Of a stretch of DNA of 21,391 bases, positions 12,752 through 13,459 are shown in pieces. This DNA is from Candidatus Asgardarchaeum abyssi (GTDB lineage Archaea; Asgardarchaeota; Asgardarchaeia; Asgardarchaeales; Asgardarchaeaceae): the NCBI GenBank assembly GCA_040225955.1, contig JBECUL010000038.1:1-21391 (forward strand). The letters are read 5' to 3'. How positions within the stretch are numbered: the first letter of the stretch is position 1; every line of letters starts with the position of its first letter. Position numbers and translations under genes: made by a program. The notes beneath the pieces are model-generated. The model did not search any database, was not told where the DNA came from, and was given only the letters and a program-made list of their open reading frames with translations.

Positions 12752-13459
12752 ATGAATAACATTACTAAAAAGATATTACAATTAGTATATGTTCCATCAC
12801 CAGTATACGCTGCTAGTGCATTCTTGTCACAAATTCCAATCTACAGAAACTCAATTAAACTGAATTTCTTTATTGAGGTTCTTATATTTCTTCCACTTAT
12901 AACATATCTTCTTTTCGAGCTATATAGTGAGGTTAGTAGACACCTTGAGAAGACTCTAAAAGAGAGAATGGATATTTTATTTGTCATTTCAATAACGTAT
13001 TTCCTTGCTGGTATGGGAATTCATTTTACTGGAAACGAAATAAATAATTTTCTAAATAATTCTGTTGAGATCGCTTATCTATACGATGAAATAATAGGGC
13101 ATATTGTCACATATTCTGGCTTTCTGGGAGTTATCACCATATTATCCATAGCACAAATACTTTCACCATCAGAAAATAAGATTTCTAAAAAAGAAGAAGA
13201 AATCTTAATTTTAACAGGTATAATTTTCGGAATTTTTGCAAGCATAGCCGCTATTGAGGGGCAAGCTCCTTATTTTGGATATTTAATTGCCCCACTTTTA
13301 TCAATCTTATTTTTGATAATTATTAAGAAAAATAAGTTATTAGTTCATCAACTACCAACTCTTGTTTTTGTTATGACATCAATGATCTCGCTTTTCATAT
13401 CTACGATAGTATATTGGATTATATTTCAGGGATTTCCACAACCAAGTAGTTATTTGTAG
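12752..13459 (+). CDS. Multi-pass (~7 TM) membrane protein, CLN6-like
   Basis: Motifs [25 protein letters not shown] and FPQP occur in the same order as motifs I recall from human CLN6. Confidence 0.65.
   Translation: [235 protein letters not shown]

Follow-up and report, generated by a model that had tools for sequence, protein, structure and literature searches.

What is a gene that resembles CLN6, the human Batten-disease protein once taken for a protein of animal type that has no relatives (PMC2674804), doing in an Asgard archaeon? The gene lies at 12752..13459 on the forward strand of the window, the whole stretch of 21,391 nucleotides analysed here, and the initial annotation, made from the letters alone, proposed its product as an archaeal homologue of CLN6. 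Its intact open reading frame encodes a CLN6-like seven-helix membrane protein of 235 amino acids (P0001), present as a single copy in a genome of 2.6 Mb. Comparison with an orthologue that is 88% identical yields a dN/dS of 0.12, the mark of purifying selection, and not a single change at the conserved polar sites. The closest named relative, found in a Ca. Asgardarchaeia genome, shares 45% identity and the same gene order. Proteins encoded in genomes of the same phylum are identical to records under the names Ca. Hodarchaeota and Promethearchaeota, in keeping with an Asgard host. The 58-nt intergenic spacer upstream of the gene (12694..12751, forward strand) carries a TATA-like element, TTTTTAA/TTATAA, some 25-40 nt ahead of the ATG, and to judge from this spacer the gene probably has its own promoter. 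Downstream, positions 14037-14661 of the forward strand hold a 63-aa ORF and a gene for a PIN-domain protein, which probably form a toxin-antitoxin pair of the VapBC type; the pair is found in locus L034 and missing from the near-identical L036 and L037. Further on, 15233-20957 of the reverse strand holds co-oriented genes for a BMP-family binding protein, an amidohydrolase, a DHOD-like protein and an aldehyde:ferredoxin oxidoreductase, an arrangement kept in L036.

The initial annotation had noted that CLN6 is usually described as a protein without recognisable domain or enzymatic activity, a view now outdated as to activity: two October 2026 preprints report human CLN6 to be a Ca2+-dependent epimerase that converts R,S- to S,S-glycerophosphoglycerol and acts in the endoplasmic reticulum in the synthesis of S,S-BMP (bioRxiv 10.64898/2026.10.07.757350, 10.64898/2026.10.07.757477). 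The enzyme cannot work without D59, D131, D173, E174, H178, and E227, its activity also depends on R62, H127, and Y182/Y223, and it is inactivated by D59A, D59E, and R62 variants (bioRxiv 10.64898/2026.10.07.757350, 10.64898/2026.10.07.757477). Catalysis is proposed to run by 1,3-phosphoryl migration via phospho-His178, an intermediate that was modelled and not observed, in the lumen-facing cavity of a homodimer; E298 belongs to the modelled Ca2+ site, with its two Ca2+ and six carboxylates, and D59 borders the glycerol retained on the phosphate (bioRxiv 10.64898/2026.10.07.757350, 10.64898/2026.10.07.757477). The text of neither preprint mentions bacteria or archaea.

Homology to CLN6

Taken alone, P0001 matches nothing in Pfam, NCBIfam or the PDB sequences, and it does not reach the 27-bit gathering cut-off of PF15156, the Pfam model of CLN6. 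An exhaustive search retrieved 145 relatives, of which 138 were aligned, and PF15156 is matched by 28 of these 138 at E<=0.01 (best 4.8e-8), the second most frequent Pfam family matching only 2 of them. The 27-bit cut-off is passed by L039, L075, P0258, P0273, L071, and L090, and the alignment of L075 runs over model positions 35-248 of 280. The profile check that the initial annotation had called for gave no match for P0001 itself but matches for its relatives, several of them above the cut-off; because it is the relatives that pass, the link between P0001 and PF15156 is a transitive one.

CLN6 was compared through the PF15156 model and through vertebrate exons taken singly. The exons came from a metagenome-scan match (L078), a vertebrate CLN6 gene fragment with a Pfam E of 4.8e-34; the 3.5-kb JGI metagenome contig carries exons 3-5 and is probably host DNA. 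On exon 4, which played no part in selecting that fragment, the profile of the 138 relatives scores 18.8 bits, more than any of 3000 membrane-segment windows and 3000 shuffles (0/3000 in each null). Exon 5, which was pattern-selected, also beats the nulls, and exon 3 is not significant with the same profile. Two bridging sequences join the sides: L071 and L090 each score 40 bits on PF15156, and 51 and 115 bits, respectively, on the profile of the P0001 family. All four motif blocks quoted by the initial annotation are found in P0001 in the order given, and the human motifs that it set beside them agree by eye with the construct printed in bioRxiv 10.64898/2026.10.07.757477. Its shorter loop is equally real: 21 residues separate H91 from D112, against 46 between H127 and D173 in human CLN6. 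From these comparisons P0001 is very probably a real but distant homologue of CLN6, as the PF15156 matches of its relatives and the exon 4 score support.

The bridging sequences deserve a word of their own. L071:81-901 is an unclassified, intronless CLN6-like gene with a frameshift near 600 (40+22 bits on PF15156); in its product an Asp lines up with human D59, but a Tyr takes the place of H127. L090:1156-2067 (G316:C206, Asgard family f23) gives the top CLN6 score in 400 genomes, at 40.3 bits. Its long loop with a GY...RDNP motif resembles the one in vertebrate CLN6 (the best of 295, p about 0.003). Statistically weak when taken by itself, this likeness is no more than a lead, though the best one, towards a eukaryotic CLN6 of Asgard descent.

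Active-site residues and fold

The residues of P0001 can be matched to those of human CLN6 along the forward strand. H91 (human H127) and N95 (human D131) are encoded at 13022..13036, Asn being found at the latter position in 94% of the prokaryotic family. D112, E113, H117, and Y121, encoded at 13085..13114, correspond to D173, E174, the nucleophile H178, and Y182. Next comes the E169-G-Q motif (13256..13264), equated with that of E227 by its order and spacing against PF15156, with E169 kept in 98% of the family, and then a C-terminal GFPQPS motif (13430..13447) whose Q230 stands at the place of E298 and is Gln in 54% and Glu in 34% of the family; the E227 and E298 equivalences rest on motif order. 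Among 212 non-redundant members H117 is invariant, D112 and E113 reach 99%, and D112, E113, E169, and H91 lie at 96-99%. The six best-conserved polar positions, H91, N/D95, D112, E113, H117, and E169, occur together in 198 of the 212, and they are the counterparts of human H127, D131, D173, E174, H178, and E227, each required for CLN6 activity. The initial annotation had supposed an intramembrane metal or catalytic site, perhaps acting on lipids, and the match of the conserved His, Asp and Glu residues to those essential in human CLN6 speaks in favour of such a site and of lipid-related substrates.

The pocket is not that of the human enzyme. P0001 has no equivalent of D59 or R62: its residues 1-41 contain no acidic residue and helix 1 no suitably placed Arg, and I165 occupies the position of Y223. 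With D59 missing, D131 replaced by Asn and E298 by Gln, the modelled two-Ca2+ site loses half of its six carboxylates. E42, at the outer end of helix 2 (12875..12877, forward strand), is Asp or Glu in 86% of the family and possibly stands in for human D59. An extra His is found three residues before H91 in half of the family, and a His takes the Y182 position in 41%. Read at the level of sequence, P0001 is a protein that keeps the catalytic core of CLN6 in an altered pocket.

The AF2 model of P0001 (pLDDT 96.6) has seven membrane helices, at residues 3-24, 37-61, 67-100, 106-137, 146-169, 174-193, and 202-225, in line with the roughly seven segments counted in the initial annotation. Lys/Arg counts under the positive-inside rule predict an N-in/C-out topology with all conserved catalytic-type residues on the outer side, and this predicted arrangement matches human CLN6, likewise N-in/C-out with luminal active-site residues. 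A homodimer is supported by modelling: the ipSAE is 0.78, against 0.00 for the best control, which passes a mark that 20 of 30 solved dimers attain as against 1 of 23 monomers, with contacts at least 98% alike between runs and a pLDDT of at least 88. The modelled interface is centred on helix 3, and H91, N95, D112, E113, H117, and E42 are not among its listed residues. The conserved residues would cluster in space to judge from helix register, sidedness and this interface list. Prokaryotic clusters of the ESM Atlas share the fold of P0001 (TM 0.85 over 225 residues). Searches of the PDB with Foldseek and VIA-align returned generic helical bundles only, with no clear match and none to CLN6, and no family of the CREST or lipocone membrane hydrolase superfamilies was among the Pfam matches of the 138 members or the top fold rows.

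Proposed reaction and its alternatives

The best reading as a whole, to which we give a probability of roughly 0.55, is that P0001 would be a homodimeric, outward-facing, metal-dependent phospho-His enzyme of the CLN6 superfamily, possibly an epimerase of G3P/G1P esters. By analogy with CLN6, phospho-His chemistry on a phosphoester is likely; epimerisation specifically (G3P/G1P) is a tentative proposal, at somewhat less than even odds. The active site is predicted to open to the cell exterior, with the N-terminus in and the C-terminus out, and a divalent metal, by analogy Ca2+, would be held there by D112, E113, and E169, together with N95, Q230, and perhaps E42. As in the CLN6 proposal, H117 would attack the phosphorus of a glycerophosphodiester to give a phospho-His intermediate, which a hydroxyl group would resolve. 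The likeliest net reaction would be that of CLN6, a 1,3-migration of phosphate across glycerol that interconverts sn-glycerol-3-phosphate and sn-glycerol-1-phosphate esters. The substrate may be glycerophosphoglycerol; because hydrophobic residues replace the polar D59/R62 wall, it may instead be a whole phosphatidyl- or archaetidylglycerol lipid, acted on at its head group. With D59 lost, the group retained on the phosphate may differ, perhaps being a whole lipid whose phosphatidylglycerol or archaetidylglycerol head group is flipped; alternatively, water or another alcohol may resolve the intermediate. The role would be the salvage of opposite-handed glycerophospholipid remains, or the setting of head-group chirality.

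How well does this fit the genomes? That of P0001 makes G1P lipids and encodes a G1P dehydrogenase (EgsA), three CDP-alcohol transferases, a two-HKD phospholipase D, and a glycerophosphodiesterase. Since GlpQ is stereospecific for sn-G3P esters (PMC7086022), an epimerase would be useful and salvage of the opposite-handed ester is plausible. Coupling to glycerophosphodiesterase is uninformative because 275 of 301 Asgard genomes have one, although two carrier families are mostly without it. Across Asgard families, the P0001 homologues track neither G1P dehydrogenase nor glycerophosphodiesterase, and no lipid-gene neighbourhood is conserved in about 80 loci; both results count against the best reading. 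Replacement of the G1P dehydrogenase was ruled out as a role, given EgsA in the P0001 genome and a family present in Asgard families with and without EgsA, the enzyme of this type being found in 0 of 171 genomes of families f5, f8, f14, f16, f23, and f27. Gene order elsewhere gives hints only: one locus has a UbiA gene, and in one Asgard clade the next gene but one resembles a geranylgeranyl reductase. At G000:C43:5468-6617, in the P0001 genome, a divergent gene of the glycerophosphodiesterase family immediately precedes one for a CDP-alcohol phosphatidyltransferase, and both are read in the same direction.

The same phospho-His core could also serve another outcome, that of an outward-facing phosphodiesterase/phosphatase or head-group transferase working in scavenging or in the decoration of envelope polymers. 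The nucleophile and three carboxylates are invariant, yet D59, R62, and Y223, which orient glycerophosphoglycerol, differ, as does D131, and the additional His residues before H91 and at the Y182 position suggest another metal or substrate. Hydrolases and MFS transporters are often neighbours, but hydrolase neighbours are common everywhere and no partner gene is conserved; the sole characterised member, moreover, is an isomerase. On balance a hydrolase or transferase is rather unlikely, though it is the alternative that survives best.

A second alternative turns on the genes that precede P0001, and would make it a metal- or cofactor-handling membrane protein tied to molybdenum/tungsten metabolism, not lipids. 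At 10153-12693 of the window, as in L031, genes for an ABC permease, an ATPase, and a DUF364 protein come before the P0001 gene. (The cassette of the window is without the gene for an NMT1-type binding protein, which comes first in L031; a gene 75% identical to it lies on contig C25 of the P0001 genome.) Beside an unrelated Dehalococcoidia homologue (L057) this cassette recurs together with MoeA- and ModE-like genes, which suggests that it takes up Mo/W. L035, L114, and L118 likewise have Mod/ModE/MoaB-like genes no more than about 6 kb away. Altogether, about 5 of 25 long loci have Mo/W-type genes nearby, compared with 3.5% of positions drawn at random from the P0001 genome, but this category was set post hoc and the queries were drawn from those very loci. 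Such genes are absent from most loci, their orientation is mostly divergent, the P0001 gene likely has its own promoter, and the residue pattern fits a catalytic site, all of which leaves a Mo/W role improbable. That the likeness to CLN6 arose by convergence, from short polar motifs set in hydrophobic helices, would agree with the missing Pfam match of P0001 and the silent exon 3, but is very improbable in view of the four collinear blocks, the members that clear a curated cut-off and align with 210 positions of the model, the 40-bit bridging sequences with their 51 and 115 bits on the family profile, and the null tests passed.

Distribution and comparison with known enzymes

Clear members occur in about 43 of 301 Asgard genomes (50 matches, 7 of them weak and partial), several of which carry 2-4 CLN6-like paralogues, some of them split. 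The family is not confined to Asgard: 21 named loci comprise 15 bacterial, 4 non-Asgard archaeal, and 2 Asgard ones, and homologues are found in Chloroflexota, Cyanobacteriota, Actinomycetota, Gemmatimonadota, Roizmanbacteria, Woesearchaeota, and Halobacteria. The ESM Atlas has clusters with 78-362 members, mostly Chloroflexota and Actinomycetota "hypothetical proteins" that share the invariant residues of P0001, and 12% of one cluster carry PF15156. Viral contigs and plasmids, searched with limited sensitivity, gave no homologue. The suggestion of a eukaryotic-signature-type family was not borne out, given its bacterial and non-Asgard archaeal members. In trees whose sampling favoured Asgard, most bacterial sequences form one Chloroflexota-centred clade, and the Asgard sequences many deep lineages on a backbone without resolution; P0001 falls in a small clade of its own, with good support, in which the named sequences come from Asgard, and the one vertebrate CLN6 exon placed there adjoins an unclassified sequence. 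P0001 is not among the copies most like CLN6. That prokaryotes including Asgard have an outward-facing G3P/G1P epimerase and that eukaryotic CLN6 also comes from an Asgard copy is, as a joint proposal, a long shot. No paper on prokaryotic CLN6 homologues, or on CLN6 and Asgard, was found in the literature, and CLN6 is absent from the supplements of one Asgard survey; the prokaryotic branch is apparently new to the literature.

Why should such a branch matter? The CLN6 reaction, from G3P-type to G1P-type glycerol, spans the very difference that separates bacterial and eukaryotic from archaeal membranes. With the prokaryotic branch one can ask directly whether microbes exchange one glycerol-phosphate handedness for the other on esters already made, and the branch bears on the question of archaetidylglycerol head-group chirality (PMC9385802). 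A prokaryotic epimerase, if real, would join the two sides of the lipid divide by an enzyme. The compact P0001 is also a practical structural stand-in for a fold without match in PDB searches, and its natural differences at D59, R62, and D131 probe the mechanism proposed for the human enzyme.

Two known systems may be set beside P0001. Phospholipase D/cardiolipin synthase (HKD) enzymes form a covalent phospho-His intermediate that an alcohol resolves, and they do so without metal. The likeness is one of working only: their fold is unrelated, and P0001 has no HKD motif. Human CLN6 is the closer comparison. The two have in common seven helices, an outer or luminal cavity, motifs collinear up to the C-terminus, and a homodimer, predicted here for P0001. 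At 235 aa against 311 aa, P0001 is the smaller, without the cytosolic N-terminal extension and with a loop 3-4 that is about 25 residues shorter. Of the human residues, D59, R62, and Y223 are not kept, D131 and E298 give way to Asn and Gln, and helix 2 gains a conserved acid.
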